Part shown: positions 3,335 through 64,000 of the stretch, one piece after another
Layout: each line of letters begins with the position of its first letter
Position numbering within the stretch: the stretch's first letter is position 1
Source of the DNA: Moniliella sp. 'wahieum'
Lineage: Eukaryota
Assembly (NCBI GenBank): GCA_003971905.1
Contig: RSEE01000006.1
Location: forward strand, 310,001-374,000
Length of the DNA stretch: 64,000 nt
Direction of reading: 5' to 3'
Notes under the pieces: generated by a model
Database searches by the model: none
Told to the model about the DNA's origin: nothing
Seen by the model: only the letters and a program-made list of their open reading frames with translations
Program-made: the position numbers and the translations under genes

Positions 3335-4939
3335 ATTTCTCTTCCGGCTCTTTGATCATTTCTACTGCCTTTTCCTTCCTTCGGCTTTGCAGACGCCCTG
3401 TAAATTGATTTTGGGCGCACGTAATGTATAATGGACAAACCCTTGGATGGTCAATCGGAGCCACGTACTATTACGTTAGGTCCTGTGCTTCATATCCTGG
3501 TTGAACCGAGCCGCGTCGAGGCAAGAGAGAGAGCCCCTAGTTTGGGTGACTGTCTGCGTGCAAAGGCCGCAGTTCAGATCCGAGGTAGGTGCCGCGTACG
3601 TAGGTCGTCAGACCAATTGAAAAGGGGCCAAGGAACTCCGGGGTAACGCGGTAATAATCAGACGGTGAGTCCTAATGAAGAGCACCAAGCGCTACTGAGA
3701 GTAACCGCGGTTCGCAGTGTAATCGACGTGCGTCGTAAATTCATAAGTGTGGTAGAAGGCGGAATATAATGTGTAACTGTTGGGTGAACATCAGGAGGGA
3801 CAGGGACAGGATGGTCGATAAGAACCACAGTTAGCAAGCCTTTTTTTAGACAGGGCTGCTTATATACAGAAGGAACCAGGCCACGAGTGCCTCATGGCAG
3901 GTATAAACAACAGAATGTAGGGATCTTTCCAGAGAGGTAAGACTAACGCCCCGTGCTCTAAAAGGCGCTGAACCTGCGTGCCTAATCGGGCGCAGCAGGA
4001 AGGGCTCTGCCAAGACTGGACTCGATGAGATCGATGAGCGCTGAGCCTCAGCTCTCAGGCTGAGCACAAAAAGCATCGCACCACAATGCGCCCATGGCGG
4101 GGCCGCGGATGATATCCGCAGCATGGATAAGGTGTCCGCAGGCTCTCTCTCGCCAGTCTAACGGGACTGACGTGTGTTTGGACGAGATGTCCACGACATA
4201 CGGGCTCAGCGTCCTGAGATAACCGGAGCGCCCGTAACACGTTTTGTGTTTTGCTTCTGTTTGTGCTGTTGTCAGAGACTCTTTTCAGAATATATTGCCC
4301 TCGTTGTGGCGTTTCTTTCTTTCGTCAAGGCAGCTCTGCTTTTGCACATGGTGTTGTTGATGCAATTCATGACTGCGTGGTGATTGCGTTGTTGTATAGA
4401 CGGGAGGAACACAGCTTAGTTGGTTGGCAAGAAATGGAAGAACAACGCTTGGCTGGCTCGCCAATTTATATTTGTCCCTCTAAATTCAATAGTGTGGCAG
4501 ACACTAGTCACTAGTAGTCACTAGGCACTAGTCAGCTATAGTCCGGCCGTACTGTGAAAAAAAAGCATGTGCGCCCCACGGGCACAAACCGACTTGAGGA
4601 AGCAGATGATCGATGACGCCGAGCCCGATGAGTTCGGGGTGGCCCCCTCGTCCATCGAGCCCTCGGTCTGAGGCTGGGAGCGCCGGCAGAAGAAAAATTC
4701 ATCCGCTGGGCAGCACGGGGCAGCCGAACTTTAGGGCCCGTTCGATCGGACCAGTGCAAATCACATCACCCACACTCACGGACTTCCGCCGACCCGCCGC
4801 CTGCCGCCACACTTGCTCCGCGCAGAGGCTGTGCTGCTGAGCTCAGCCACCAGCCCGCAGTGGCTGCTGGGCAGAATGTTGGTGGCGGCCGCGCAAAGGC
4901 TCCCACCACCACCTCCTTGTCTTCTGCCGCTCGCCCACC

Positions 4940-7721
4940 ATGGCGTCTTGCGGCGCACCGGTGGCGGTGGCCACGTACTACCACACCTCCCTCATCACCC
5001 ACACCCTCTCCGCCCCATCCTCTCCTGCCCAGACGTCTGCCGCGCCGAGCAGCAGCTCGTACGTGTCCTTCTCTTCCTCCCCTCCCCTCCCCTCCCGCCA
5101 GCAGCTCGCTGACTCTGCCACCCCTCTTCCGCTTTTCCTCCGCTCCTGCATCCACTCCGGCCTCCGCTTCTGCCTCCGCTTCTGCATCCACTTCTGCCTC
5201 CGCGTCTGTCCCTGCGTCCCTTCACCTGCATCCACATCCACCCCCACGTCGTCTGCTCCCCCCACCTCCACGCGCCCCACATCCATCCTTGGCACCTCAT
5301 CTTCCCCCACCTCCAGCCAGCCCACCACGTCGTCCCAGCACACCACCTCCGAGCAACCCACGACTTCGTCCCAACCCACAACATCGTCTCAACCTACAAC
5401 TTCATCCCAACCCACAACATCGTCCCAACCTACGACATCGTCCAACCTACGACCCGTCTCAACCTACATCCTCGTCCCAGCCCACCACCTCATCTCAGCC
5501 CACTACCTCGGAGCGACCCACAACATCGTCTCAACCCACGACATCGTCTCAGCCCACGACGTCCAGCCAGCCCACTACCTCGTCTCACCCCACTACGTCC
5601 AACCAGCCAACTACCTCGTCTCAACCCACTACGTCCAGCCAGCCAACTACCTCTCAGCGTCCTACTACTTCTCAACAGCCTACCACTTCGCATCAGCCTA
5701 CCACTTCGCAGCAGCCCACCACTTCGCAACAGCCAACCACTTCACAACGTCCCACCACATCCCAAGAGCCTACCACATCCCAAGAGCCCACCACGTCCCG
5801 GCGGCCTACCACGTCCCAAGAGCCTACCACCTCGCAACAGCCCACCACCTCGCAACGGCCTACCACCTCGCAACAGCCTACCACCTCACAGCGGCCCACG
5901 ACCTCTGTCCAGCCTACCTCGACCCCAGTACCGGTGATGGGGATGGCAGTGGGAATGGAAATACCTCTGAGGAGAGGAACGACCTCAGGCGGCAACGGGG
6001 GACAAACATCTAATGGCAATGGAGGAGACACTACTTCCGATGGCAACGGGGGGCAGACGTCTACTCGTGGGGAAGCGGAGACCGAACGTCTACCGGAGAT
6101 GGCACGGGCAACACCTCCGCTGACAATGGCGGAAGCTCGGGGCGGGTCCAACACAACAATGGTTCGGGTTCAGGATCGAACAACAATAATCGTCGTGCTC
6201 CTGCACCCACTCCCTGGCTTGGGGCCCGCCGGACTGTTCAGATTAATCCGCGGGCCGACAGTATTTCTGTTGAGACCACCTTGGTACCGTATACCACGAT
6301 CTTCTCTACTCCCTCCTGCACTACAGTGAGCGGGCAAATCGTCACGGAAACCCTCACGGCGTCAGCTGCACTTCCCTCTGGCGCAAGTGTAGAAACACTT
6401 ACCTCGGTCGTTGTTGTCCCCGGAACGACTATTCCTGGGGTCACAACGATTAATCCCTCAACCGAGGTTGACCTCTACAGCCGTCGTCGTGGATGGTGGG
6501 GGTGGTAAGGGTGGAAAAGGTGGCAAGGGAGACCCACAACAGGGAGGGCTTGCCGATGGCGGTAGTGGGGGCAATGGGAACCACTCTTCAAACGCAGGTG
6601 CGATTGCGGGTGGCACGGTGGGCGGAGTGCCGGGGCTGCGATCCTCTTGTTGCTTTTGCTACTTGTTTGGCGTAAGCGCTCGCGCAACCGCATCGCCGAT
6701 GCCGATGCTGCTGCCCTGGCCAACTTCGATGATAAGGATCAGCCCCGTGGACCGTTTGGTAAGGCGATCGCCGCCCTTGGCTTCCGTCGCCCACATGCAC
6801 GGTTAGACCGTCTCTTTGCTCCTGCGGGTGTTACGGGGAGTTCAGGGCATGGCCACGACCCCTACCTCGACGAGGAAGAGGATGAACCTGGCACGGGAGG
6901 CCGGGAAATGGAATCTACGGCGGCTGCACCTGCTGCTCACGGAGCAAATGACGTTGAGGCCAACGTATCGGAACCCCACTGGAGTGCACTCTATGGCCCC
7001 GGCGCCGATCCATACAGTTCCGAGGGCCATTACCCCCAAGACCCGGCTTTGGCTGCGCAGGGTCAGCAGCTGGGAGAGTATGCTGGCTGGAATGGAGACG
7101 TGGGTGCAGAGCAAATGTATGGGCAAGGTAACCCGTATACTGCCGGGCAGTACTACCCTCCCCCAGTCAATGGCGACCAGACGCTGCCTTCCTCGCTTCT
7201 GCTCCTGAAGCACAAGCAGGGCCGTTTGCCGATCCTCAGTATGGGGCGGTCCCTTCGCACGAGTCGCGCTCTCCCCACTCACTGGACCACCTGCTGGATC
7301 GAGACGATGGGCTAACCTCGTTAGCGCAAGGGGGCATCTCCCTGACTCTGACCGGCCTGGGGCAGCCCCCGCGTCGCTGTCGGGGAGTTTGGTATCGTCT
7401 GTACCGGCCGACAAGGACGGGTAGTGCAGCCGTCTGCGCCCCCTCGTCCTTCCATCCTCCCTCGGGCGATGCAGCTCGATGTGTTTCGCTGACAGCGTCC
7501 ATCTCTGACTTGGACCACCACTCACCGCGGGAAAGTATGTTGCTAGCGGCTCTCATTCCCATTCCCATTCCCACTCCAACTCGGACACACGCGACCCCTT
7601 GGACTCGACCCCAGCCGCCCTGGCGCAATCCGAGCGTTCTGCGTTGCTTCCTACCTCGAGCTCGGCCTCGCCTCCGGGCTACGACCACTATCCAACCCGC
7701 TATGGCCACTTGGACCACTGA
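4940..7721 (+). CDS. Mucin-like single-pass membrane protein (Mid2/Wsc/Skg6-type architecture) with SQPTTS repeats
   Basis: Long Ser/Thr/Gln/Pro ectodomain, then NAGAIAGGTVGGV...LLLLLVWRKRSRNR (transmembrane segment plus basic stop-transfer, ~6590-6690), then an acidic/Tyr-rich tail ending PPGYDHYPTRYGHLDH*. Several frameshifts; start uncertain. Confidence 0.7.
5310..5920 (+). repeat. Coding 18-bp tandem repeat (S-Q/E-P/Q/R-P-T-T-S type hexapeptide), roughly 30+ copies
   Basis: Repeated TCG/TCC CAR CCN ACN ACN TCN units with synonymous third-position variation. Confidence 0.9.
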
Positions 7722-15706: not shown

Positions 15707-17351
15707 ATGCCCGCCATGCCCGCCCACTGGACACCAGCTCGTGGCGCACCAATCCTGTCGCCCAGGACGTTGTATATCCCGACACCGACAAGCTCAATGG
15801 CGTCTGCCAGCGCCTCAGCTCGCTCCTGGCCTCGTAACTCCGGGAGGTGGAACGTCTGCGGGGTGTGCTCTCTACCGAGGTTGCCGCCGGCCGTGCTTTC
15901 CTCCTCCAGGGCTGGCGATTGTGCCGAGCTGTTTCGTACTGTGATCCGGCCAGATCGAGGCCAAGCTCAAGCTGTGTTGGTCATGAGCCTCATATTATCT
16001 GGGGCGCACGGACACCCGTGGTGCGCATTGGGCGGATCGCCGGGCAGTACGCCAAGCCCCGGTCCAAGCCCACGGAGATTGTTAAGGTAGATGGCCAAGA
16101 GAAGGAGGTTCTTTCGTTCCGAGGAGACAATGTTAATGGCTTTGGGTTGGAGGAGCGCGTTCCGGACCTCTGAGCGGTTGATGCAGGGCTACTTCTACTC
16201 CACTGCAACGCTCAACCATTTGCGTGCGTCCTGGGCAGCGTTTGCGACTTGCATGCGCAATGCAGTGGTCCTTTGAGCACGTCCGCCCCCACCTCCAAGC
16301 AGTTTGAGGGCATTGTCGATTCCCTCACGGACTCTCTCGAGTTTATGCGCACCATTGGAGCCGACCCTTCCGGGGCCGGCACTCCTACTTCGGCCGCCGC
16401 TGGGCCGCTGAGCTCGGTGGACTACTACATCAGCCACGAGGGGCTTATGCTAGAGTACGAGGAAGGCGTACACGCTACGCTACCCTTCCCACCAGTGCAC
16501 GCACTCCGCTGGACTCGGCTGCGTCGACGCCAGCCAACTCATGGTATTCCCTCTGAGGAGGAGATGGGTGCCTACGCCCTCTCTGCACATACCATCGGCT
16601 TGGGGATCGGACGCGTCAAATGGACGGGGCGCACGTGGAATTTTTCCGTGGCATCCGCAACCCGATCGGGATCAAAGTGGGGCCGACGATGCAGCCGGCC
16701 GAGCTGGTGGCCATGCTGGACCTCGTCAATCCGCAGCGAGAGGCCGGACGGGTCACGCTCATCTGCCGCTATGGAGCCAGCAAGATCGACGCGCTGCTGC
16801 CGGCGCACATTCAGGCCGTGCAGGCATCGGCTCATCGGGATGCGGTGATCTGGTGCTGCGACCCCATGCATGGCAACACCGTCACCAGCCCTGGCGATGC
16901 CGGGATCAAGACGCGCCGGTTTGCCGACATTGTGACGGAGCTAGTGCGGGCTCTCAAGATCCACGCGTCGCTCGGCGCCGTCTTGGTGGTGCCCACCTCG
17001 AGTTGACTGGCGAGATTGACGAGTCCGGGTTCAGCGTGACAGAATGCTTGGGCGGGGAGCATGCAGCTCGGCCCGACGGACCTGGCTAAGCTGGTACCGC
17101 TCTCACTGTGATCCACGGCTCAACTACGAGAGAGTCTGGACATTGCTTTTGTCATCAGTTCCTTCAAGGGCTCAACGACGCAAGGCCGGCCGTACTCCCC
17201 GAAACGCCCATGCTGCTTTCAGCCGGGATCCCTCTGTCCACCGTGGCGCTTCGCCCGCGCCCGGACGGGGCCGAGCCATTCGGCCGAGAGCGGGTCACAG
17301 GAAGACGATTTGCTGGCGGAGCTGGTCAAGGGCATTGAGACACGGCCCTAG
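15707..17351 (+). CDS. Class II DAHP synthase (phospho-2-dehydro-3-deoxyheptonate aldolase)
   Basis: RAFLLQG(GDCAE), PVVRIGRIAGQYAKPRS, SFRGDNVNG, YISHEGLMLEYE, DGAHVEFFRGIRNPIGIKVGP, WCCDPMHGNT, GGAHLELTG, CDPRLN. Frameshifted. Confidence 0.93.
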
Positions 17352-23969: not shown

Positions 23970-24652
23970 ATGGCCATCTGGACCTCCGTCGCCAAAAACC
24001 AGGCAGACAAGTACGCCGCCAAGTACCAGCCCGAAGTAAGTGCCTTCCGGGGCAGCGTAGCCAGCGTCTAGCGAAGCCCAACGCCTCATCCGCGGCACTA
24101 ACATGAGTCTTGTGTCATCAGGACCCGTTCTACGAGTACTACCAAGATGCCAAGGGCAAGCAGAAGCGCCGCAAACGGGCCCCCCCGCCTGGGTTAACCC
24201 CGCACGAAGAGAAGGTGTGGAAAAAGATTGCCAAGCACGCACATCGCCTCGACCGCGGCATCCGTATCGCCGGGCTCCGGTTTGGATACACCGCCATCCT
24301 GGGCATATTCCCCTACGTTGGCACTGCCGCGAATGGTGCGCTGAACTACTACCTCGTCATCAAACCAGCAAAAGAAACTTTTGAGTGTGTATTCTCTCCC
24401 TTTGTCGATGCAGTGAGGCGCAGAGCAGTGCTGACTCTGGCCGTATCCCAGTTTGCCGTCGGGCACGGTGGATCGGATGAAGTTTAATGCGATGGTTGGG
24501 TGTGCGGTTGACCTCATTCCACTGGTAGGGGACATATTCCTCGCCGTGTGGGGAGCGAATGCACGCAACGTCACCTTGTTGAACGGCACTTGGCCACGTG
24601 CGCCTTCCACAGCCGTACATGGCCACGTATGAGGCACACAGGTTCAACTTGA
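23970..24652 (+). CDS. DUF4112-family membrane protein, three exons
   Basis: AHRLDRGIRIAGLRFGYTAILGIFPYVG and VDLIPLVGDIFLAVWGANARNVTLL; introns start at GTAAGT (~24036) and GTGTGT (~24385). Confidence 0.8.
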
Positions 24653-28863: not shown

Positions 28864-29216
28864 GTTGGGCGGAGGAGCAGCGGGGCGAGGGTTGGGGAGG
28901 TGGTGGTGGTGGGTGTTGGGCGGAGCGGCGGCGAGCGCCCCAGTGGCAAAGCCAAACTGAACGCAGCGTGGGAGCAGGTGACGTTTCATTGCAGCTCTCC
29001 TGCCTGCGCTGGCGCCCACCACTAGCCACTCGGCCAGCCACCGGCGGCAGCGCCCGCGATAACCGACACTGCCCACGTGCCTCCCCGTGCGCCCTCCCGT
29101 TTCGGGCACCTTCCCTGTCAGTCCACGCCATCACCAATTCCGCCGGCCGCATCCGCTTCCGCCGCGGAGAAAAATGAGTTCCGCCGGGGCAGCTTATCAG
29201 TCGCCCCAAAAGAAAG

Positions 29217-29301
29217 CGAATCCTGCCGGGGTCGAACCGACGACCATTACCATTACTCTCGAAAGCCGGAAAGTAACACTCTACCACTGAGCTAAGGATC
29301 C
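29217..29301 (-). tRNA. tRNA-Arg(CCG) with ~13-nt intron
   Basis: Reverse complement GGATCCTTAGCTCAGTGGTAGAGTG-TTACT-TT-CCG-G[intron]T-GGTAA-TGGTC-GTCGGTTCGACCCCGGC-AGGATTC-G, then a T-rich terminator. Confidence 0.85.
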
Positions 29302-34112: not shown

Positions 34113-37100
34113 CTACAGCGTCATGGTCATTGTCATCGTCTTGGCATGCACCCCCAGCACCGGCGGCCCCCCCGCAAACAGCGTGTGCAGCAGCTTGAGG
34201 TACCGCAGCGACCGCAGCTCGTCCTCCGCCGTCCCCGCCTCGGGCGGCGGCAGCGCCGTCAGCACCACACTCGTCCCCCCCGCCACCGACGAGTGGTGCG
34301 GATGAGCTCGTTGAGAATCAGATACTGCGCCTTGTTGGGCAAGTCGTTGAACGAGATGAGCGGAGGCCCGCCCGCGTCGGGTGTGGGAGATCCGTAGCGC
34401 ATATGCGAGAGCGCAGCCGCGAAGACGACCGCCCGTCCCCGCTGCCCGACCCCGCCTCGCTCGCTTGTGCCTCCACGTCCACCTCCCCGCCGCCCTGCTC
34501 CGCCTCGCTCCCAGCCTGCTTGTCCCCTCCGCGCGGATGCACCGCAGTCCCAGACGCAGAGGACGAAGAGGAAAACGAGGACCGCACGCCTGGCCCCGTC
34601 CCGCGCACCGTCGCGTCCCCGTCCTGGTCCGCCTCAGACTCGAGCGGGGACGATGAACGCGGGGGGAACGAGGGCCGGGCCCGCGCCCGCGGCTCCTCCA
34701 CCGTATGCACCCTTCGCGCCAGGGAAGCGGACATGCTCTGCGACCGGCCCTTGTGGCGTCTGCGCGTAGTATCACCGTATTCGATCGGCCGGTCGCAATT
34801 CCCGCACCTGGGGCGGCAATCTGGGACTGGGAGCGCGGGCTGCCACTGTTGCCCCATTGGTCCGGGTCGAAGGTGGTAAAGCTCGTCGCTTAGGTCGCTG
34901 TCCGAATCCGACTCGCTCCCGAGCTGGAGGAGTCGGCGTCGGAGCTGGTGGACAGACGGGTGCGCGCCTTGGGGTGCGCGAGGCCAATTTGGATGTTGCG
35001 TTTAAAGTAAGCCATATGTTCGGGCGGGAGGGTGAAGCCGAACAAATTTTGTTGTTTGCGCGTACGGCGTGCTGGGCTGCTCGTCCGGTCCGTCGTAGAC
35101 ACGCGTTTTTTCGAAAGCGCCGCTTGGGCACGTCGGGCACGCCGGGCATCTTCCTTGCGCAGTTCCTTCAACGTCTCCCACCACGGATCCAACTCCAACG
35201 CCCGTTCGATCCGCTCCGACGCCTGTGGCCCAGCACGATCGCCTCGTACGCATTCACCTGGGCCGTGCGCAGACAAAACACTCGTAGCTCCGCTCGGACA
35301 CGCAAGTTGTCCAGCAAACTCTGGATCCGACCCGTTCCTCCACTTGCTCAGGCACTTCGACAAACACATTCACCCGTAACTGGTGCCGCTTCCAGGCACC
35401 GGTCATGCTCAAGATCGTGCCCAAATGCAAGACCATGGTATAACTGTCCCAGGTGCGCGACTGATCGTTCCCAGGTTCCGTACTGGCAATCTGCACTGGC
35501 CACAGGTCGAGGTACTTCTTCTCTTCCCCACTGTGCGAGGGAGAGGAGGAGAACCAGGAGCCAGCACCATGGGTCGGATGGAGCGCTTGGGTGACCGATG
35601 TGTCCAGGTGCGAAAAGCCATAGGCAATGGCAAAACTCTTGTTGAGCGCCAACGTGTCCTCCATGATGCCAACAAACGCTTGGGCTCGAATGGGGGTTTC
35701 GCGTCGCGCCTGGTCCGTAGGCAGCTCTTCCATCCAAAGTCATGTAGCCTTGCGGATTCTCTTCCTCACTTTCCTCGGTGGGCTCGCCATGCCGCGGATC
35801 GTAATCTCGCTTTCGTCCGACCCGGCGACCAAGGATTTTTGCCGTGGATCCATCCGGAGCGGGAACTGCATGTGCGACGGAAAGCCCATCACAACAATGT
35901 TGGGCGCATCCCGCCCAAGCCACAGGATAGAATCAAGTTGCGTGCTCCCTCGCGCTCGTCACGCGCAATGACAATGTCGACAAACGACTTGATGCCCGTC
36001 AAGTCGATCAGCTTGAGCCACGATACATTTTGCTGTTTCAGCTCGGATAGGCACTCAGCAAAGTCGCCCTTGAGCACGTGGCCCAATACGTAGAGGGAAC
36101 CTTTTTTGAGGGCGTTGCAGAAGATGATCGTGTTCCATTCGGTGCGGGGGTTGTTGGCCAACAGCAGCACTTGCGGACGCCAATACTTGACATGGCCCTT
36201 CCGCTCATCGATCCGCAGCATCTGACGACGCGAGATGTAGTAGTTAAGTTGCGCGTCACGTCGCCCCACGGTTTGGGCGGCGCATAGATGTGCACCGCCA
36301 CAAACAAGCCAAAGGTCAACACGAGGCATTCGAGCGCCGCCCACCAGTCCGTGAAGAACATGGCGCCAAAGCTGATCAGCGTGCCGCCCCAGGCAGTGTA
36401 AATGTTCCAGTACCGGAACGAGGGCCGGAAGCTGGGCGCACCCCCAGCCTTCAAGGCAGCCGTGGCAAAGCACAGCGTACCAAACGTCAACAGCGTCGTC
36501 ATGGTCACGAGCTGCGCCAACGCATTGACCGAATCGACCACCAGACCAGCTGGCAAAAGAGGTAGGTGATCAAGATGGCGTAGGTGGGTGTATCGCTGAC
36601 CTCAGTGCCTTGGGCAAAGACATTGAGTACCGGAAGCAAGTTGTCCCGTGCGATCGCCTGGAGCACCTTGGCACACGCCAAGACGCCCATCAAGGTTGAA
36701 AATGCCGTCGAGGCCAATGCGCCAAACGTGATCAGTTGCGGACTGAGCGCAATGTCATTCACGATCCCAGCGTCGCTGTAAAAGCTTTGACGATCCACCG
36801 TCGAGGCAAGGATGATAAAAGTGCCGAGGTAGATGATGAACGTGAAGACCAAGGACCAGTTGGTGCCCTTGGGAATCGACTTGCTCGGCTTGCGCAGGTC
36901 GCCAGACATACTGGCCCCAGCTAGGATCCCATTGACAGCAGGGAAGAGCACGCCAAAGACCGACTGCCAGCTCTCGGGTTTGTCCCCCGTCGAGGATCCG
37001 GCGGCCCCCGAGGTAAAGTGCGGGAAGCAGTTGGCTTTCAACGTGGCCAGCGACCAGCCGGTAAAGTACGCGCCCCGCTCGGCGTCGCGGAAGGGGTGCA

Positions 37101-38254
37101 CGGCAATGCTGGAAAGGGGGATGGAAGGATGGCAGCAGAGAGGATAACAGCGAGACCGAGTGTGGCGCGGGCAAACAGCCGGCTTCCAACGAGACAGACG
37201 AGCATGCAGAGCAAGAGCAACAGGCTTCCATAGAAGAAGAGCCAGATGGGACCCTCGGGCAGACCATCGGACATCCTCGACTCGCCATACGCATCAGTCA
37301 AGCTCTCCACAAACCCAAGCACGTTCATGGCAGCGTTCAACGCTTGACCAGCAAAAAAGATAAGGCCAATGCTCCCGCCAAACTCGGGTCCGAGACTGCG
37401 GGAGATGAGGTAGTACGCTCCACCGCCGCGCACTTGACCGTTGGTGCTAATTGCATTGAGCGACATGGCGGTCAAGGTATCAATCGCGTAGCTGACCACC
37501 AGCAACCCAAACGCACCCAGCAGCCCAACTTGGCCAATAATAAAGCCAAAGCGAAGAAAGAGAATGATACCGAGGATCTGCATGGACATGACAGCGTTAG
37601 TACCGCTCGGCCCAAACCAGCGTACCTCCCCACGAGCAAGACACATACATTCAAGCTGACCGGCATAAACACCCCGTCCCACGTCCCCAGTTTCCTCGGC
37701 GCATACTCAGCAGGGGAGATCATGCCGCCCGCTTTGGGATGGTGCGCGGCGGGGCGGGCGCAACGTCGTCGGGGAAAAAGGAATTTTCTCGTTGCAAACC
37801 CATCTTGCGTTTCTTGTCGGACCCATCTGCTTTCACACCGGGCTCAAATGTGACGCCCTTCTTGCCATGGCGAGAGGGAAGCGGAGCATTTTCCCCGGCC
37901 GGGTCGCTATCCAGGGCACCGTACCCCCGAGCATGTGGTAGCGAATGCCCATCCTCCTGCCCGGCGAGCAAGGCGCGGTCCTCCTCCAAATCAGAGGCAG
38001 CAGGACCGGGAGACGCAGCCGACGATACGGCCGCCCGGGGCAAATCGTCCTCCGAGTTGCGCCGGTGGAAGCTGGCCCGGACGGAGTGCGGGTCAGCGAG
38101 GCTGGAAGGACGGGAATACTCGTCGTTAGGCGGGAGGAGACCGGACTGGCGCGCCTCATGGTTCGGGCCCTCAATCGAGTCGCGGGCGGAGGAGAGACTG
38201 GGTCAGGGCTTGGAAGTCATCGCGGTCGGATGGCCTGCTGACGAACTTGGACAT
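34113..38254 (-). CDS. VHC1: Cation-chloride cotransporter (SLC12/Vhc1 family)
   Basis: KLGTWDGVFMPVSLN|ILGIILFLRFG, AISTNGQVRGGGAYYLISRSLGPEFGGSIG, FGVLFPAVNGILAGASMSGDLRKPSKSIPKGT, APSFRPSF, KYWRPQVLLL, GLGGMRP; ends PPVLGVHAKTMTMTMTL*. Confidence 0.95.
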
Positions 38255-39283: not shown

Positions 39284-41285
39284 ATGCCCGCCATGATGCC
39301 ATTCTCTCCTACAAGCAGGGGTTCTTCGTCTCTCCAAAGCATCGCTCTTTTACTCCATGAGAAACTTCCACCTCCACCTCCACCCGCCCTGCCAACGGTC
39401 AACATCCGCAATGGTATCAGCGCCAGAACTGATACCAACGGCACTCCGATCCAGTTCTCGCTTAGCCCTCACATCAGTTCTCAGATTAAAGCTGCCTTCC
39501 ACGATATGTGCAACGATGCCCTTCGCTCCCTGCTCGACCGCTTCCGCTCAGAACTGGAGACGACCGCATCCTTCAATCCGTTGAGTCCTGCCCAAGTCGA
39601 AGGGGTCATCAAGCATGCCTACCAGTATGCCACCCAAAGCATTCAACAACCCCTGCCTGACCTACTCCAAGCCATGCGCGCCAGCCAAGGGAGCACGATG
39701 CTCAGCAGCCGCGCAGTCTTCCTTTCTTTTGTGGAGACCTTTACCCTCTATGTTTCTGACGAGGTTCTATCTCCTCTTTTAGATGTGGTCCGACAAAAAC
39801 CTCATCTCTCAAAGCGCCTGCGGGCAGGGGTCCAGCATGCAGAACCGGCAGCGTCCCCGGCCGATTCATCCCCAACAAGCCGTCGCTATTCTGAAATATG
39901 CGTTTACCCTCTCCCCGCATTCTACATGGGCCGAACAGCAGGTCCTCAGCGACCTGACGAAACTCCGACGAGCACAGGTTACCGCTTGGGTACGTTACTC
40001 GCGGCCCCCACGGCGTGTCAGACAGAGGGATGAGAGAGGAAGCACTAACATGAGAGAACACAGCAACAGAATCAGCGACACCGTTCCAACCCCATCAAAG
40101 GGAAAAAACAAGCCAAGCGGGCCAACAATGGAACGCAATCAAAGGCTCTCCTGATGGCATCCCGTCTCGCTCGCCTTTGTCGAGCATCTCTGAACGGGGT
40201 AGAGACAGCTACGAATTTCAGGGGAACCAACATGAGGAAGAGATGCAAGAGGACAAAAATGATGATGAGCAAGATGCCCTGTGCAAGAAAAAGAGGAGGA
40301 AGAGAATGAGGAGGCTCAATGCGATTGGGGAAACCATGGTAAAAGGGACCTGCCCCTTTCCTCATCAAATTACGACCAAATTCTCGAGCAAAGACAATCT
40401 CGAGCAGGGCGAGTATGTTTTCTCTCCCGCGCGCCTCTGAGCAACTGCTTTTGACCGGGATTCAGCACTGTTCGCGTCCCACGTTCCACCACCGTTTCTG
40501 ACGACAGCTTTATGGGCATGGCGCCAATGTATTTCAGCCACGGCCTATCCCTCTCCAGATCACCCGAATCCCAACACTACTTTCGAGTGGGTTTAGCCCT
40601 CAAGCTCCTACTATCTGTGATGATGGTGGTCCGGTCGACTTAGGTGTGTTGGAGCATGCTCCAGATCCCCACTTCGCCCCCCCACCACTGCCTCAGTTCC
40701 AGGTCCAGCCTCCCTTCCGGCGAAAATGGGCACTGGACTCTGGTTGCGGCACATAAGCCAGTGGCAGGAGTCATCCCATCCCCCAGGGGCCTTGACAAGT
40801 GTACCCTTCTCTTTCATCCCAAGTTCTTTCTCAGCATTGGCAGCGCGCGCAACCCTTTTGCCCCCCTGCACATCATCTATGCCAGGCACCCCACATGCCC
40901 ATCTTTATTCCCCGGACGCATTTCAACCAGGCTCATCAGCCTTACTACCCCTCCCACTGTCTTCAGCACACCACAGTTTGGAGATGGCGGCCCGATGTCC
41001 TACTTACGTTTGGATGAGACTAGCATGGTTGAGCACCAATTCGTCATCACCTTCGTTACATCTACTCCCGTGTCAGCCAGCACTACCCTTCCTGCGCAAC
41101 CGAGTTCGCCTGAGATACTAATAGAGGTCCTATCTGCTAATCAGCCCCCTAAGTGTGAACGATATGTGGAGGATGGGGACCAATCGTCATGTTCGTCTTC
41201 TCTCCGTCCGTTTGACCCTGGCTTCACCCTTAAGTCTCTGCCCTGCAATTTTCTGCTCTCATTCAACATCTTTGCCATCACCTAA
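39284..41285 (+). CDS. Homeodomain protein A (HD2-like, atypical helix 3 WQQNQRHR)
   Basis: RQRPRPIHPQQAVAILKYAFTLSPHSTWAEQQVLSDLTKLRRAQVTAW | intron 39990-40063 (GTACGT..ACTAAC..CAG) | QQNQRHRS. N-terminal ORF 39284- joined by a frameshift near 39795. 3' end uncertain. Confidence 0.75.
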
Positions 41286-42234
41286 AGGAAGAGTGCTGAT
41301 GTATTCCGACGGATTGTCAGTTCGATAGTAGCACACTGATGGCACATCAATTCCCATGTCCTTTTCTTTTCCTCTGTCCTTCTGCTCTTGCTCAATATAT
41401 ATGGAGCTAATACGGGCACACATTGTCTGTGACGCTACGATTGGAACACTATATATATGATTGACCACAGCAAGCGGCCACCATCCCACGTCTTCCCTAT
41501 CGACACGGTTGTAACCTTCCCCATGAACAACACCTGTATCCACCCCGATTCTCCACCATCACGACACGAAGAAGATAATGCGCATTGGTGTGGCCAAAGA
41601 GTATGAACGGAAAATGAACGACACTCTTGCAATAATCAGTGGGGAAATATGGCAAAAGGCAAGGCGCAAATAGGTGCTCGTGAGAGGGCAGTGATTTCTC
41701 TCTGACCTTGTGCGGGAAAAGTCGGCTCGCCCAGTGTGCCCCTGGGCGGAGAGCGATAACTGTGGAGCATGAGCAACACTTGCCTAGTGGCCTATGCGGT
41801 GGCTGTTGAAACTCGTATTCTCTCACAGTGACGCCCACCCCGACTATACGACGACGGTGGTCCATCAGGCGCGACAGCACTGTAGGAAGTACTCTCTCCT
41901 TAGCCAGGGGGAATGGGGTGAGGTAGCAGCATAGCCGTTTTGGGTTGATAATGAACACATCTCAAAGGCCTCTCAATATGAGGGGCACTTGATTCTGCGC
42001 AGGTGGGGGGCCTTTACTGCTCAATAGGGCTCGAAGGTAAAAACCTATTAAAGCAGAGACCTCGTCCATCCCAATCTTGCTCCTGGTCTCTGGTCTCGCC
42101 CACATTCATATCCTCTCTCTTCCTCTCCCCATCGCCAGCCATCCCAACGTCCCTTGATCGCGCTCTTCCCTTTGTCTGACCACACACCCCAACCCGCGCC
42201 CGATCCCGAATTCAAACACGGCACCGAGCACGCC

Positions 42235-43524
42235 ATGGACGGAACCGCGAATGCTGGAAGTGCACACCCTTTGAACCCTGACATCCAAACCGACTTTCGC
42301 GACCGGTGCATGCATTGGCTCCGTCCCCGCATGGTCCAGTTTCGCTCCCAACTATGGGGCATCAAGGACGCTTTCGGCATCAACCATTTCAATCAGCTCC
42401 AGGTCGACAATATTTGCAAGTGTGCTTGCCAGTACGCCTACGAGGGCCTTCGGCAGATAGCCAAGGACTTGCCAGAGGTAATTCCGGTTCGTGAGGACAA
42501 CAGCCGGACGATTCGCGAAGAACAAGTCTTTTGGGCCCATGTCACAACATTTATTAACTACGTCGAGGTTGAGGTCCTACCCTGTCTCTTCAAAGTGGCA
42601 AAGGGCCTCAAGTCCGTTGATCCCATTCCCAACCAAAAAGGGATGAGTAGGGAGGACAACAACTCCCGTACCCGCAAAAGGGAGGACATACCCGACGATA
42701 AGGCTCATGTTCTGAAGCAGTCCTACAACTTGTGCAACACTCCTACCAAGGCTGAGCAGCGCGAACTCAGTCAGCTGATTATTCTTAAATACAAACAAGT
42801 TAATGGCTGGGTATGCTTTGGTGGCGCTCTCCTCGTGTGTGAGACCAAAAGTGTGTGTGAAAGACCAACAGTCTAACCCGCATGTGTGGAATGCTACAGT
42901 TTCAGAACAAGCGGTACCGCTCCAAACCCTCCAGCAATAACGAAGAACCGAGTGTGCGGGCCGGGAGCATCCTCGGGCAAAAAAGAAAGTTGACGGAAAG
43001 TGAGAGTCAAGATCCGGGGAAAGAGGCAATGAAGGCAGTGAGGGAAGGAACCTGGACCAGGAAGCGGTTTGTATGAGCACCTTTTTCGGCGATGCGGACA
43101 ACCTTGACCTTGTCTCGCAGGAGCCTTGGTGAGTTTTCCCCATATCCTTTGTTGTTGCTGTTTTGGATTCTGACCGTATGGTGGGCTTCCAGCCTGCGCA
43201 GCCCATTCCCCGCTCCCGAGTTAGCCAGTACTCAAGGTCAGCCTAACCCCGCCGAACGTAGTATCAACTGTTGGTTTCGGAATAAGGATGCATTTTCGGA
43301 TGTATTTTCCCAGTTTATTGTCAGCGGCCATGAGTTCCCCGACTACATTCCGGGCGATTTCGGCATTCCGAATCCCAGTGACCCTGCCATGCACACTCCC
43401 CAATGAACCGGTGACGCTCGCTGCCTCGACTGTTGATTCGTTCTGTGCGCGGGCTGCGGAATCTCCCTTTGTTTGCGCTGAATCACTTCCCTTGCCATTT
43501 TCTCGTTCCCTTCAGCTTGCTTGA
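42235..43524 (+). CDS. Homeodomain protein B (HD2-like, WFQNKRYR)
   Basis: RKREDIPDDKAHVLKQSYNLCNTPTKAEQRELSQLIILKYKQVNGW | intron 42811-42899 (GTATGC..TCTAAC..TACAG) | FQNKRYRSK. Second intron ~43129-43192. 3' end uncertain. Confidence 0.85.
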
Positions 43525-43991
43525 AGGACTTATGGCTGCCTGCCCTGCCTTCTGGTATGTCTTGAAGGTGTTCCTCTGTTCTTCCTGTTCTCAAGTTGCA
43601 CATCGCAATGCAGCTAACGTGAACGCCTTTTTATGGCTGTGCGACTGCCCTGCCTTCTCGTAACACGCGTTGAAGTTCAGCTCGTGTTGGTCGTAGCGTT
43701 CCCTATAGCCACACTTATAGCACTCTCACCTTCACTAGATCCTGAATTTTTTTTTTCTGTGTGATTAGTGCACGCTTCTGTTGCATCTTGTGCGTTTCTG
43801 GCTCGCTTCTACAATATGTCGAACGTTGCTGTGCAAGTCAGTTAGAGTTTTTTTGCATTATAATTTGGCACGCCCTTTCTTAGTTCACATCTCACATGCA
43901 ACCCTTGCTCCCCACATAATCCCCCTTTCGCCTGTCGTGCCCTTCTTCCATATACCACACTCCCTCACCACACCGATCCCTAACGCCTACT

Positions 43992-45106
43992 ATGGACGCC
44001 GGTAACCCCGTTTCCTCTGTGCCGTTACGCAGCCCTGCGCCGCGCGAGGTGCGCCAAGCGCCACGCTCGCTGGCCGTATCGAAGGTCTGCCATCGCTGCT
44101 TGTCCCGCTCGACGGACTTAAGCCCGACGACGAGGACGTTCGGGAGATCATCGAGGCTTCTGAACCTACTCTCCGCCCCATCCGTCGCTTGCTCTACACA
44201 GGCATGGCCTATGGCACAATGCGCGTCACCACGGGCAACACCATGCAGACCCCTTGGGGGACTGTTGCTCGATGGGCGCAGTACCATTACTTCTACCTCG
44301 ATGAGGGGCGGGTGTGATGTTCAACTGCTGGGTGTACGAGGGAATTCACCGCGTCCTGAGATTCAAGCCCATCCGGCCCCCCGGCAAGCCACCGCAGCCC
44401 TTCAACTCCGTATTCAAGATGAACCTTCTCGTTCCCCTAAGCCAAGCGCGATGATGCCGCCCCCCTCAGTCAGGCACCCAGCCCCACCGTGCGTGCAACC
44501 TGGGCCAAGGCCTACTTGACCCCACGCCGTGCCCCAGACGGGACAAGCAACGCCACCCCACCATCGTCTCCCTCTTTCGAGAATGACGGCAGCTCTTCGG
44601 CGTTCTCTTCCCCTTCCAGATCATCCCATTACATTACAAGATGCTCTCAGTCTTTCCCAGAGAGCGAGACGTCGTTGCCCGTCAATTCTGAAGCCAGTTC
44701 CATTAGCACGCCTAATCAACAGGAGTCCGTCGAAGAGAGGCAAGCGAGCCAGTTCAGCCTCATGTCTATTGACAACTCTGGCAGATGGGGGGCTAATGCG
44801 CGCCCCATGAGTGGCATTGAATATACTGGCTCATTTTCCTTAGTCCGATCTCCCCACGCATCCCTACCCGTTCTCCCCCGTTCCACACACTTTTTTCGGC
44901 AGAGAGCGATGAGCAACCGTCACGTGACAGCGATTGCACCCCCAATGTTGTCCATTCATGGTCGTCCAATGACTCGGATGATTTCCTGTCCTGTTCTCCA
45001 CACCTGCTCTAGTTTCCGCCTTGCTGGTGAGCCTGGCCATGTCTTTCACGTCATTGGGCAACCCTTCTTCCCTCCCTCCTACTCCATAAGTCACTTGCGA
45101 GGCTGA
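43992..45106 (+). CDS. Hypothetical (orphan) protein, frameshifted
   Basis: ATG 43992, then protein-like frames LAGRIEGLPSLLVPLDGLKPDDEDVREIIEASEPTLRPIRRLLYTGMAYG..WAQYHYFYL / FNCWVYEGIHRVLRF, then Ser-rich ORF 44489-45106. Confidence 0.45.
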
Positions 45107-57761: not shown

Positions 57762-59559
57762 CTAGGCCTGCTCGGGGAGGGGCGCAGAGCTACCCGCTTG
57801 GACTTGGCGTGCCTCCTGTTGAGAATCAGCAGCCGCCTTGCTCATTGCCTCGATCCACACTTCTGTCGGGATCGGTCGCGCGACCGAGGAAACATGTCGG
57901 GCCAGAGCCAACACAGGCAACCGACGTAACAACCGCCCCGAAAGACCTTTGGTCTGGCGGGCCAGTTGGGCCAAAAGAAAACTAGCCCTGTCCGGGCCAG
58001 TGGGTGACGTGAGCATGGATGCGACGGGCCATTGCAACAGTGGCTGCGAACAGAGAGGGTCAGCAAACTCACGCAAGCCGCACGCCAGCTGATGGAGCGG
58101 GGAGGAGAAACGTACAACGTGTGTGGCCATGCCCTTGGCCATCAACTCCTCCAGACAAGTGCGCTGGATCCAATAGATGGCTTCCGAGGAAGGAAGACCA
58201 ATGTATTGTTTAATGTCGGCTCGATCCATGAAGGCCGAATCTGCAGAGAACGAGATCAGTAAGCCGTTTCAGTTCACGTTGGTTGAACCCCCCCACCAGA
58301 AAAGTCCACATACCCATCGCCTCCGAAATGTTGGAAGTGGTCATGACGAGAACATTCTTGTGGTGCTTGAGCTTGTCCAGCTGCGTGAGCACCGCATTGA
58401 CCACCCGTACTGCGTCGGAGGGTTCAAGGCCGCCCAAGGAAGCAGACCGTGCGGTCGCCAAACTTTCCACCTCATCTGAGAAAGGGTACGTGTGAGTATG
58501 AATTCGGATGAAGAGGACCGATGCGTACCAATCAAGATCACAACAAACGCGTCCTCTTGTTCCACCAGTTCCAGAATCATGGAAAACAGTCGCTGCACCA
58601 ACTTGCCCGACTCGGAAAACCATTTGGAAAAGAGCGAGTGGGAGTTGATCTCAACCAGTTGGGTGCTGGCATACTTGGTTCCCAATCGGATCGCGAGCTT
58701 TTGCGCCAAAGCCTTACACAGACTCGTCTTGCCCGTGCCGGGTGGACCATGGAGCAACACGAGACTGACCAAAACGGATGTGAGCGGGCTGTAAAAAGAG
58801 GGAAGAGAAAATGGACCACGTACCGATTCCAAGCGATGATATCAGCGTCAATGCCGCATTCGGACAGTTCAATGGTCGAGTAAATATACTGGAGCAACCG
58901 TTGCTTCACATCATCGTCGTAGATTAAACTAGCCCCCCCACCATGGTCAGAAAAAATAACCGGGAGAAAGAGAAAATCAAGAAAAGAAACGTACTTGCGC
59001 CACAAGCCATCGTACTCTTTTCGTGGCAAGGCGGCTGTGCTGGCGGCCGTGACGGGCTCCTCCTCGCCTTCCTCGTCTCCACCGACAGTAAACTCTTCGA
59101 TCGCATCCGGAACGAGCTTGTACAAATGAACGTGAACATGGATCTGGCTGAGAGTGACAGTGGGCTGCCCGTTGGCTAAAGAAGAGACACATGTTAGTAG
59201 GGATGCGCAAAATGGACGCGGAGGCGGAGGCGGACGTGGACCCAGTCCAAAAAAGACGCACAGCATTCACCGACGGCAATCATTTCAACGTTGGAAGCAA
59301 GCGTTGGATCTTCCTTCCATCCGGGAAGCTCCGCATTGCATGTTATGGACGGCATGTAACGCGCCAAGTATTGGTCGAGGGCAGTGACGAGAAGGTGGCT
59401 GGCGACACGCGCGTCGTAACGCAGCCGCACCTCGACTGGAGCGGATAGCAAGCCATATGGTCAGTAAACCGGACAGAAATGTGCCGATTACGATTACTAC
59501 GCACCATGAAGTACATCCACTGCAACATGAGCATCGGATGTCAGTGCCAGCTCGCCCAT
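57762..59559 (-). CDS. PCH2: Pachytene checkpoint AAA+ ATPase Pch2/TRIP13, multi-exon
   Basis: [106 protein letters not shown]. Confidence 0.96.
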
Positions 59560-59911: not shown

Positions 59912-62547
59912 TCACCTTGGCAACGCCTGCCCAGCGAAACTTTCAATCCTAGTCCTTCGAGAGAGTGTAATTTTTCCTTGAAGCATGTGAACAAGCGGCC
60001 TGCTGGAAAGACTGAATGATGGACAGAAAGAGAACCACCTTCCTGAGTCCTGAGGGAGGTAGTCAGACGAAGAGGACAAAGGAGGATATGTAGAGTGAGC
60101 ATCAACGCCATGGAAAAGACCAGAAAGGTACCATGATGACTTGGCAGCCTCAAACGCGATCGAGCGATGCGAGGGGGAAGAGAGGGGTTGAACACATATA
60201 GATAACGCGATAGGGGAACTGTTGTGAGTGGGGGTCCGTGTACACACGCAATTCCGTAAGGTAGGAGGAAACCTAGCGGAGCGCCGCCAGCGACGTTCGT
60301 GTCCGAATGCGTAACAACTTCTTTTTGGACGAATCTGGCGTCCCAAAAGAGGGGGGATGGGCAGGAAGATGGTCCGGAGGCAAAGTGGGAGAAGGAGTGA
60401 TGTATGGGTCCTTGCGTACCGATACGAGCGAAGCCAATGATGCCTTAGACCGCAGACGGGACCGTAGGCCACCCTTTTTGGATAGGGAGGGAGTCGTGGG
60501 AGTGGTACCCGTTCCGGGGGTGGGACTACGCACGTGCTCTTCTTGCCTGTGACTTGAGGATGCACTAGGCAGAAATCCATCCCGCGAATGTTTGGAGGCA
60601 GAGTGAGAACTGGTCGAAGCCGACGTAGGACTGAAAGGGCGGGTGGAGGCAGGGCGAATAAATGATGGGGGTGAGGTGGGGGCGACGCCGCGCCGCTTGG
60701 GTGACAAGAGAGAGAGAGACGAAGAGGTAGCCAGGTAAGATGTGTTGCTCATGCCAACACTCCAATCGTCTTGGAGCCTTGGATCCAACCGAGATGTGTT
60801 CTTGTTTTCACCGATGCAGTCGACCGAAGCCCGGGAAGGAACGTCCTCGGTAGCGGCTGTGCCTAATGCCCAAAGAGACGACACTTTGCGGAGTACCTTA
60901 GTCTGTACCTTTGAGGATACCGCTGACGACAAGAAGGGCGAGGCTGGAGGTGAGGGTCTTCCCTCTCGGTTCTCCACCGCCCCCTGCCCGTTTGGCACAG
61001 AAAGAAGAGTGGCAGTAATATTTCCTCCTGAAGAGTCAGAAGTGAAACCGATGTCAGAGTCACGAGATTGTGACGTTGGCCAAGGGCTGTCGTCTAGGGA
61101 GGAACCGATCGACCCGATTCCGGTATCGTTCGAGTACTGCGTCTCCAAAGAGTGCTGACTCTGTCGCACTTGGGGTGAGGGTCCCGTGGGTAGATCCCAA
61201 GGGGAACGCGACTCGTGTGGTGTCATCGACGCGCTGAATGACGGTGTGAATGTATGAGGCAAAAGAGTATCCCACTCCCCCAATCCGGCGCCTGACAAGC
61301 GAATACTGAGCCGAGGCGGTTGGTGAGCTTCGGCCCGGTGCAAATACACGTTGGATTTGAGCCTAGGAGGGGTAAGTAGGGGTCTGTGGGTTAATCTGGG
61401 CCCGCCCATGCGAGCTAATGCAGAGCTGTCGGTTCCCTTGTCGGAAAGGAAAGTGCTTGATTCGTTGCGAGGAAGATCCGAAGCCGGCTCCGTTGCAATG
61501 GTTGAGGTTGTGGTGGAAGCACGGGATGCGGGCCTGCCTGATGAGTGAATAGAAGAACCCCAGCTTCGTACCTCTGCTAATTCAGTGGCGGGAATACAGG
61601 AGTTAGAATCCGCCAAGTAACAAGAAAAGTACCACAAGAATAAGTACATACGCTTGGCCTCGGACCTAAATGAACCGTGTGGGGGGGGCAAAAGAGATGG
61701 AGGGGCCGTGGGCGTTGTAGGCGAGCCGGGTATTGTTGTAGGAAGCAGATCAGATTGAGCGGAAATACTAGAGGCGGTTTCCACGGACGTGTCGCTCACT
61801 CGAAAGGAACTTGATCCATAGGGGGGAATGGATGCCGCGCTGACCCATGGCGATGGTGAAGAGAAAGATGACGGCCCCAAGACAGCATCGAGCTTAAGGA
61901 TACTGTCGCGTTCACCACGACAAGCAAATGACATGGGCGATGACGACGCATCCCGATTGGGCATATTGTGGGATGTCGTCGTGTGTTGGGCTCTGAGGCA
62001 GGCCAATGAGTGTGTCCAGCATCTCCTCTTGACCATCCGATTCATCCCACCGCGGTAGAGGATGTGGGTTTGGACGGGGAAAGGTGTGGACCAGGTCTGA
62101 GAGGAAGTTAGCAGAGCGAGACCGCATGCTTCCAGGAGTTGTGGCAGATGGCGGTTTGGCACTTGAGGGTGCGCTGCTGGTAGTCGTAGTTGGGAGCGGG
62201 TGTGGTGATGTAGGGCGATGACGAGGCGAGGATGGAAGGACGAGAGTAGCGAAGGATTTGAGGGCGCCAGGAGAGGGAGCCAGCCGACTGCCTTCGTCCG
62301 TCGCGGAAAGGACAGCCAGAGGCGGCAAGGGGGTATTATGGCCGGCGCCACTTTGCCACCGCGGTTGTTGCGCTGCCGTGACGAAGGTGTTGGTTTCCTC
62401 CTCCGTGTGGGCTGGAGACGAAGGCAGAGGCCGGGCCGGGGACAAGGGCCTGACGCGCTCCATTGGAATGGAGGTGGGGGGGCAGGGGGTGGTGGTGGCG
62501 CTCCAAGATTCGAACGAGGGAACCGAGTGGGTAGGCTGGACAACCAT
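59912..62547 (-). CDS. Hypothetical Ser/Pro-rich, largely disordered protein
   Basis: ATG 62547 (MVVQPTHS...) ORF overlaps a 756-codon ORF 60273-62543. No domain recognised; 3' end uncertain. Confidence 0.55.
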
Positions 62548-64000
62548 GTGTGGCCACGCTGGAGGAGCTGGCAGGCGAGCGGCAGCTGGGACTGCCGGGG
62601 CGAACGGTGGCCATTATTTTGCCTTTACACCCCCTCCTACTAGAAAACCAGACTGCGCACTAGTCAGACACATGGCCTGGGGCCAGTGTCCGCCGGGAGG
62701 GGTGCGGGGGTGTCCGCGGGTGCACGGCGCCAGTGGCTGCGTTTGGGTCGACATGGGACGGAAGCGTATCTGAGCATGCCGCCGGGCCATGCCCCGCCTT
62801 CCATGCGCCCCTCGCCGCTGACCGTGTGGCTCCGCCGGGCTTTGAACTGGGAAAGCAGGCGCAGCAATCGGCACTCGTAATCGGAGGCCACCATCGGTGC
62901 CTAGCAGGTTGGCCAACAGTTGGCTTGCTTTTGGCCCCTGGCTGTCTTGAAGCGTCAGGCTTCAAGCTTCACGCTTCACGCGTCACGGACATTCACATCC
63001 ACATACGTGTCACGCGCCACGCCCCTGGCTTGGACAAGCTTTAGACCCTCTCTTACATGGCCCCATCGGTTGTCACTAATAGACACTCTGTTGCGCCTCT
63101 CAAGCTCCAAGGTTTCAAGCTTCGAGCTGTTCTGTCGCCTCCGGCATCCTCCGAGATGCGCCGCTGCCAGATGGGGAGAGGGGTGGTCGATGTGACAGCA
63201 AAAAGCACAGACGATCGGATCGCTTATAAATTGCTACTGCGCGCCACGGCACCAATTCAGATCATCAGAAGCTTAATAGCAAAACTCTGCATATGAGGTC
63301 AGCCAGTCCGGCCTGAAGTTGGTAAAGCTAAATACTGGTAAGGCTTGTTTGCACGTGTGTACACCATGTTACACGTTTACACAAGTGTGGAAGACCGCGG
63401 GGAACGCCACGGCGTTTGTGTGGCTAAAATACTGCTGATGCTGTGCCTTTTTTCGGCAATATACCATTGTTCTCCCGCGTCTGTCTGAAACGAGCAAGCT
63501 GTCCCATTTCTTCAAGAAAGTCTCAATCCCCACATTGGACACAGGTCGAGTATATATATCGCCTCAAAAGCATGGCACTGCCACAAAAAGCTGGAAGAGT
63601 CAAGTGCACGTGGACCACATACCACAACGCTATCAATAAAAGGGCTACCCTAGGTATCTTACACCCCCCAGCCGCATTGATCCATCTCTATCTCTTCATA
63701 TAAAAGTAGCCTGTAAGCTGTAAGGCATAATTTTCACCTACTATACCCCGATGGGAAAAGGGAGCATAATCGATTAGACTCTCTATTAGAAGTATCATCA
63801 TAAGGCGCAAGAGGCGCAGTCTTTCTGTACATTGACCAAGAGAAAAACGCCCCTGGATGCTGGGGCTCTCTTCTCATGCATCTCATGAGATGTATGGAAT
63901 TGTTGCAAAATCTGAGCGCGCGGCTAAAGCTGAGCCATTCGCATTCGCACTCGCACTCGCACTCGTGCTCCTCCTGCTCGCCTGCCGGCTAAGCGCTCAA

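Follow-up and report, generated by a model that had tools for sequence, protein, structure and literature searches.

A tandem pair of paralogous HD2-type homeodomain genes with a shared, unrecognised N-terminal domain in Moniliella sp. 'wahieum'

Mate recognition in basidiomycetes is based on heterodimers of HD1 and HD2 homeodomain proteins. In a stretch of 64 kilobases (kb) from the genome of Moniliella sp. 'wahieum' (contig RSEE01000006.1 of assembly GCA_003971905.1, positions 310,001 to 374,000 of the forward strand; hereafter the window, with positions counted from its first letter) we found two homeodomain genes in tandem on the forward strand: gene 1 (HD-A), from 39284 to either 40643 or 41285 according to which of two alternative 3' ends is taken, and gene 2 (HD-B), at 42235–43406. 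Both are of the HD2 type, and no HD1 gene adjoins them. The reading that we favour, for which the chances seem to us evenly balanced, is that they are old tandem duplicates of an HD2-class (bW/Sxi2-like) gene of the mating-type family. That the pair has a mating-type role at present is plausible but unproven, and we consider it distinctly less probable than such a descent. Papers are cited here by their PMC numbers, and what is said of each is limited to the excerpts on which it draws.

Among the described systems nearest to this locus is the b locus of Ustilago maydis and other Ustilaginales, an order within the nearest sampled subphylum, Ustilaginomycotina, to which all the best named matches of the neighbouring V-ATPase H gene belong. 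In bW, as here, a variable N-terminal domain precedes a classical homeodomain, and the gene contains an intron. In Ustilaginales, ACAAAGGGA elements also occur near mating-type genes (PMC3248468, PMC4466345), and here they occur near gene 2. Unlike in Moniliella, where the neighbour of gene 2 is a same-strand HD2-type paralogue and no HD1 was found, bW lies head-to-head with bE in all Ustilaginales genomes studied except one (PMC10262431). Library searches with gene 2 exon 1 brought up no named bW. The HD locus of Kalmanozyma brasiliensis is an exception to the divergent rule, with adjacent HD genes on the same strand; however, these are bE and bW, of two different classes, whereas both genes described here are HD2-type paralogues (PMC10262431). 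Within Ustilaginomycotina, departures from the divergent HD1/HD2 pair amount to this single species, and concern gene orientation only, in the parts of the literature surveyed (PMC10262431).

More distant systems share other features of the locus. Agaricus bisporus H97 has, in its mating-type (MAT) locus, two tandem HD2 genes, a2-1 and b2-1, with classical homeodomains of 60 amino acids and about 33% identity, which have been interpreted as what remains of two paralogous HD1-HD2 sub-loci (PMC8305134). This locus belongs to a different subphylum and differs in having a divergent HD1 beside the first HD2, and mip in the flank, neither of which was seen here (PMC8305134). In Cryptococcus neoformans MATa, which carries SXI2a only, and in Trichosporonales, an HD2-class gene occurs in a haplotype without HD1. 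These loci are, unlike ours, fused with the pheromone/receptor locus (STE3 lies about 55 kb away in Trichosporonales, and no STE3 was found in this window) and have one HD gene each, against two here (PMC6730849). A sub-locus with HD2 only is known from Flammulina filiformis, where 72 kb separate it from the HD1/HD2 sub-locus (PMC13346205). A first reading of the letters by a model, made without database searches (the sequence-only reading), had offered a non-canonical mating-type locus as one of two readings of the present arrangement, beside an undescribed lineage-specific homeodomain family. The arrangement is less unusual than the word "non-canonical" suggests, as tandem HD2 genes (PMC8305134) and MAT alleles with a single HD class (PMC6730849) are both known. 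By comparison with these loci, every element of the arrangement has a precedent, while their combination in a smut relative has none in the parts of the literature surveyed.

The homeodomains of both genes are of the classical type. The Pfam Homeodomain profile (PF00046) matched residues 147–192 of gene 2 exon 1 with an expectation value (E) of 5.2e-4 and 20.2 bits, and the corresponding piece of gene 1 with E = 0.069 and 13.4 bits. The pieces were scored unspliced, so both matches cover profile positions 2–47 of 57 only, and the score of gene 2 stays under the gathering threshold (22.9 bits), since exon 2 encodes the final 10 profile positions. Positions 2–47 are filled by exactly 46 residues in each gene, and the best match among solved structures was a classical homeodomain, 2da1_A, which aligned without gaps (E = 0.095). 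From the profile match and the ungapped alignments it follows that the three-residue insertion of TALE homeodomains is absent from both genes, and the Homeobox_KN (TALE) family of Pfam matched neither of them at E ≤ 1. In basidiomycetes, HD1 proteins are distinguished by three residues inserted between helices 1 and 2, and the HD2 homeodomain has the classical 60 residues (PMC8305134). In helix 3, the HD2 motif is WFQN-R, against WFI-AR in HD1 (PMC13346205). Across the inferred splice, where exon 1 ends in NGW and exon 2 begins with FQNKRYR, helix 3 of gene 2 reads WFQNKR, which fits the HD2 motif. Helix 3 of gene 1 reads WQQNQR; Trp48, Gln50, Asn51, and Arg53 are kept, and Gln takes the place of Phe49, so that the HD2 motif is incomplete. 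Neither gene shows the features of the HD1/TALE class, since both lack the insertion between helices 1 and 2 and a helix 3 of the WFI-AR type.

A phase-0 intron splits both homeodomains directly after Trp48 of helix 3. In gene 1 it occupies 39990–40063 (74 nucleotides, nt; GTACGT...CACTAAC...CAG) and in gene 2 42811–42899 (89 nt; GTATGC...TCTAAC...CAG). In Flammulina and Coprinopsis, introns interrupt the homeodomain of HD2 genes in identical places, and one HD2 homeodomain intron has been reported as conserved in other basidiomycetes, with reference to the b genes of U. maydis and U. hordei (PMC3140503). The excerpt gives this conserved intron without its exact codon, which sets the level at which the intron after Trp48 can be compared with it (PMC3140503).

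The two genes are paralogues. Their N-termini aligned colinearly in BLASTP with 38 identities over 123 positions (31%; 51.6 bits, E = 3e-13), and their homeodomain pieces aligned without gaps with 18 identities over 48 (38%; E = 2e-7). When the frame pieces of gene 2 were compared with the gene 1 region by tblastn, just two colinear segments were recovered (E = 2e-14), with no convincing similarity between the C-termini. This divergence of 31–38% is similar to the 33% seen between paralogous HD sub-loci in Agaricus (PMC8305134). At the DNA level, the only repeats between the genes were short two-copy matches, none of which marks a recent duplication; the duplication is therefore old, and the intron after Trp48, being common to both genes, is older still. 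The sequence-only reading had proposed HD2-type homeodomains in both genes, a phase-0 intron after the Trp of helix 3 in each, and colinear, paralogous N-termini. All three proposals were borne out by the profile comparison (Homeodomain over Homeobox_KN), by the intron coordinates, which are exact, and by the alignment of the N-termini, for which the peptide strings it quoted are likewise exact.

Gene 2 is predicted to have three exons and a product of about 339 amino acids, against some 640 amino acids in bW. Exon 1 (42235–42810) begins with the ATG at 42235 and is an open frame of 192 amino acids without a stop, ending in the codon TGG; it encodes the N-terminal domain and homeodomain positions 1–48. 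Exon 2 (42900–43128) opens with FQNKRYR, which completes helix 3 (WFQNKRYR), and continues into a basic and acidic linker. Removal of intron 2 (43129–43192; 64 nt, GTGAGT...CTGAC...CAG), whose splice signals match the consensus, joins two protein-like frames in register, and exon 3 (43193–43406) terminates at the TGA at 43404–43406. The gene most likely stops at this codon, after its second intron, and the sequence-only reading, which had ended it at 43524, was probably too long. The exons total 1019 nt, a multiple of three minus one, which implies one apparent 1-nt frame break, within about 43004–43073. In the corrected product the homeodomain spans residues 146–205 and is followed, as in gene 1, by a short tail rich in Ser, Pro, and acidic residues. 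The G + C content at the three codon positions (0.56/0.36/0.64) is coding-like, compared with 0.61/0.46/0.65 in the V-ATPase H gene. The 3' flank of gene 2 contains an 18-nt direct repeat (43540–43557 and 43645–43662; 94% identical, 105 nt apart).

The N-terminal domain of gene 2, like that of gene 1, is helical and measures about 110–130 amino acids; in gene 2 it lies together with the homeodomain within the first ~205 residues of the protein. In experimental work on the HD2 protein of Phaffia, the N-terminal domain and homeodomain region was taken as the first 196 amino acids (PMC4915694), and in Flammulina filiformis bHD2-1 the corresponding region is amino acids 1–195 (PMC13346205). By analogy, the layout of gene 2 matches the N-terminal specificity/dimerisation domain plus homeodomain of HD2 proteins; the likeness is one of layout, and dimerisation would be a further step. 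AlphaFold2 predicted helices at residues 15–41, 54–77, and 89–127 of exon 1, with block values of the predicted local distance difference test score (pLDDT) of 62–80 and a dip to 49 at residues 81–90. The alignment behind this model had two rows and the mean pLDDT was 56.6, so that we take it as a statement about secondary structure only. Compared with PDB by Foldseek, the predicted structure gave no match at E ≤ 1e-3; the best hits were generic helical bundles (lowest E 0.66), from which we draw nothing. The prediction of a complex between the two N-terminal domains scored 0.00 in a run without controls and counts neither for nor against dimerisation.

In the protein libraries we searched for relatives with gene 2 exon 1 alone, a query that stops 12 residues short of the end of the homeodomain. 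The N-terminal domain corresponded to no Pfam family. An exhaustive phmmer search of 1,835,955,588 protein representatives returned no match at E ≤ 1e-3, and by a rough estimate any relative with the closeness of gene 1 to gene 2 would have surfaced in it. A word-indexed search likewise gave none at E ≤ 1e-3 among 22 candidates of near length and none at E ≤ 10 among 195 longer ones. In metagenome contigs, 103 pattern matches anchored on V-ATPase H and 254 obtained with the alignment of the two paralogues were examined, and none was confirmed. In the ESM Atlas, the whole exon 1 gave a sub-threshold lead only, to a homeodomain cluster of Basidiomycota (feature score 0.86), and the N-terminal 135 amino acids alone gave no usable match. 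The domain therefore deserves the description "unrecognised" given to it by the sequence-only reading, as regards Pfam and the large protein libraries. Such a lack of detectable kin fits the fast evolution of mating-type specificity domains, and it fits a young, lineage-specific family equally well.

A new element that suggests a link to mating was found beside gene 2. The sequence ACAAAGGGA is the Prf1 pheromone response element of Ustilaginales, through which Prf1 activates mating-type genes (PMC3248468, PMC4466345). Two exact copies bracket gene 2, both on the reverse strand, one at 42167–42175, 60 nt upstream of the ATG, and the other at 43464–43472, 58 nt downstream of the stop codon. A third exact copy in the window (24397–24405, reverse strand) lies inside or beside an open frame with DUF4112 (24107–24484). 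The 64 kb thus contain three copies where 0.53 are expected, a number reached by 3 of 100 shuffles. Under a first-order local Markov model, the probability of at least two copies within gene 2 ± 150 nt is 1.2e-4, and 7.8e-4 for both genes together. We take the bracketing pair as new support for a mating-linked role of gene 2, in which a Prf1 homologue would bind these elements.

From the intact WFQNKR helix and the two bracketing ACAAAGGGA elements, we infer that gene 2 is the DNA-binding member of the pair and is probably inducible by pheromone signalling. As in other HD2 proteins, its product would become active only once its N-terminal domain had paired with that of a compatible partner. 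Gene 1 would be a diverged copy that has kept the residues that define the fold, and the Gln in place of Phe49 in WQQNQR probably makes its DNA binding weaker or different. The pair may determine mating type today, may form a second sub-locus with HD2 only, or may be what is left of one. In a deep, unsampled relative of the smuts, two HD2-type paralogues without HD1 could point to an HD2-only sub-locus of the kind known from some mushrooms, to a MAT allele with one HD class like that of Cryptococcus, or to a new pairing rule, and any of these would add to what is known about the rebuilding of mating-type loci. For the present the practical value is limited, as the assembly is error-prone and the analysis covered one haplotype.

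Several results weigh against descent from a mating-type gene, and the first of them concern the missing partner. The window extends 39 kb upstream and 20 kb downstream of the pair. Among 119 open frames of at least 45 amino acids between 37.7 and 45.7 kb, only the gene 2 frame matched a homeobox family at E ≤ 0.5, and neither the 64 frames of at least 200 amino acids nor the 263 frames of 90–199 amino acids in the rest of the window matched a homeobox, STE3, or pheromone-pathway family. Six-frame scans of the window for a further helix-3 signature, of the WFI-AR or another type, intact or split after its Trp, also found none; family profiles and motif scans thus agree with the sequence-only reading that no HD1 adjoins the pair. 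The genes on either side (an SLC12 transporter, mitochondrial RF1, and V-ATPase H) are housekeeping genes, and to our knowledge none of them is a MAT-flanking gene. By contrast, bE and bW are adjacent and divergent in all but one of the Ustilaginales genomes (PMC10262431). The response elements were noticed by eye and post hoc, and the definition of their motif comes from Ustilaginales, a group far removed from this host; gene 1 has no exact copy, and copies with one mismatch are not enriched in the window (16 against 13.3 expected). Gene 1 carries at least two frame breaks and possibly also an in-frame TAG. As no link at the sequence level was found to a named bW or HD2 protein, the class assignment of both genes rests on motifs and architecture.

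Much of this would also be expected if the genes were a pair of ordinary homeodomain transcription factors, specific to this lineage and without a part in mating, that share the layout of short N-terminus and homeodomain by chance, and if the true bE/bW locus lay elsewhere in the genome, which we regard as the strongest competing explanation and a possible one, though clearly short of an even chance. The lack of any HD1, STE3, or pheromone-pathway gene within 64 kb, the housekeeping flanks, and the lack of detectable homology to named bW/HD2 proteins all speak for it, as does the dependence of the class on few residues, with a homeodomain piece that reaches 20.2 bits against Pfam and E 0.095 against solved structures. 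However, conserved non-mating homeobox families usually retain recognisable homeodomains and orthologues throughout a subphylum, and here none was found among 1.84 billion representatives. The combination of WFQN-R, a helical N-terminal domain before the homeodomain, and an intron inside the homeodomain is the HD2 pattern, and two exact ACAAAGGGA elements bracket gene 2. For these reasons we prefer descent of both genes from an HD2-class gene.

A second explanation, which we think unlikely, is that gene 2 alone is functional and gene 1 is a decaying duplicate, a pseudogene shifted in frame between the N-terminal domain and the homeodomain, with damage to its recognition helix and a stop in frame. 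It is judged by the structure of gene 1. The N-terminal part of exon 1 (39284–39800) begins with the ATG at 39284, stays open to about 39800, and encodes a Pro/Ser-rich leader of about 50 amino acids followed by the paralogous helical domain. Homeodomain positions 1–48 (39786–39989) are read in the +1 frame relative to this part, and the first break, apparently of 1 nt, falls at about 39790–39850, between the N-terminal domain and the homeodomain. We considered 12 formal candidates for an intron that would bridge the two frames; every one had a weak donor, and an indel is preferred. After intron 1, exon 2 (40064–40412) opens with QQNQRHR, which across the splice gives WQQNQRHR and restores N51 and R53; a basic stretch follows, and then an acidic/basic region in another frame, the second apparent break being near 40100–40140, after helix 3. 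A tentative intron 2 (40413–40465; 53 nt, GTATGT...TTGAC...CAG) would, if removed, join the frames 40054–40437 and 40455–40640 in register, and would be followed by a tentative exon 3 (40466–40643) ending in the TAG at 40641–40643. Directly after this TAG, the same frame stays open for 213 amino acids (40644–41285), without a Pfam family. This stretch may belong to gene 1 as its true C-terminus, in which case the TAG would be an error or a nonsense change, or it may be non-coding. Near its end, 18 amino acids in one frame at 41217–41270 show a weak colinear likeness to 43466–43519, just behind the stop of gene 2 (tblastn, E = 0.002, the search being small). This is possibly a shared 3' element; if the likeness is real, it would speak for an extension of gene 1 to about 41285.

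The frame change at 39790–39850 without a credible intron, the second change after helix 3, the TAG at 40641 with 213 more open codons behind it, the replacement of Phe49 by Gln, and the lack of a pheromone response element at gene 1 are what a pseudogene would show. The same kind of break, however, occurs in conserved neighbours. The SLC12 transporter gene has two frame changes within 36400–37200 (reverse strand) with no space for an intron, in the DAHP synthase gene profile positions 263 and 262 abut at 16599–16605 in different frames, and EF3 (8.6–12.3 kb) and CSE1 (52.8–56.1 kb) are broken up among many frames. The open frames of V-ATPase H (553 codons) and of the prenyltransferase (375 codons) have no break. 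These observations suggest an indel rate of roughly one per kilobase in the assembly, so that gene models in the window need correction, and such a rate covers the breaks in both homeodomain genes, as gene 2 also requires a correction of 1 nt. Since conserved neighbours share the defect, we do not read the breaks in gene 1 as decay. In addition, its codon-position G + C content (0.58/0.42/0.63) is coding-like, and its two conserved segments contain no stops. A diverged but coding gene 1, paralogous to gene 2 within the HD2 class, remains the reading that we prefer.

The remaining explanation, which we consider very improbable, is a self-contained recognition pair in which HD1 has been lost and the HD2 paralogues dimerise through their N-terminal domains, gene 1 taking the accessory role of HD1, so that a heterodimer of three-helix domains would provide self/non-self recognition or, in a homothallic fungus, constitutive activation: the two diverged N-terminal domains, the lack of HD1 in the window, and the poorly conserved recognition helix of gene 1 would suit it, but the dimerisation is an idea only, HD2-HD2 pairing is not described in the parts of the literature surveyed, and an HD1 may lie beyond 64 kb, as the 72 kb between the Flammulina sub-loci illustrate (PMC13346205).

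Upstream of the pair lie genes for EF3, DAHP synthase, a UCH protease, Sua5, RPL31, a prenyltransferase beta subunit, and the SLC12 transporter; downstream, after some frames at about 44.0–45.1 kb, follow mitochondrial RF1, V-ATPase H, RNase H1, aspartate kinase, CSE1, DAM1, and a PCH2/TRIP13-like ATPase. The G + C content falls to 0.52 at 40–44 kb, whereas most of the window has about 0.55–0.66, with about 0.60 as the typical value; we count this dip among the points for the favoured reading. The frames between gene 2 and mitochondrial RF1 (43990–45106, forward strand) are protein-like, gave no Pfam family at E ≤ 0.5, and look like a further gene, apparently also with a broken frame.

The V-ATPase H protein served to place the host. 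It matched 39 proteins at E ≤ 1e-20, and the best named ones were all from Ustilaginomycotina: Tilletiaria anomala (41% identity, 341 bits) and Parajaminaea (39%), then Testicularia, Kalmanozyma, Sporisorium, Tilletia, and others. Matches to Agaricomycetes were much lower, at about 200 bits, and two further records had 76% and 70% identity. These matches indicate that the host is a basidiomycete nearest to Ustilaginomycotina, without a close named relative in the library searched.

Some other features of the window were recorded. A frame of 565 amino acids at 4632–6326 (forward strand) gave only low-complexity repeat matches (Cementoin, with a His-rich family in an overlapping frame), and one of 783 amino acids at 60276–62624 (reverse strand) gave no Pfam family. 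ARAGORN called one odd tRNA-like element at 29216–29301 (reverse strand), whose anticodon has four bases (gctt) and to which no amino acid was assigned; it is probably either a false positive or a tRNA gene damaged by an indel. The PCH2/TRIP13-like AAA+ ATPase, of a meiotic checkpoint family, is encoded at 57765–58841 (reverse strand), about 14 kb downstream of the homeodomain genes, and matched the Pfam families AAA_lid_TRIP13_C (E = 1.3e-16) and AAA (E = 1.4e-12).

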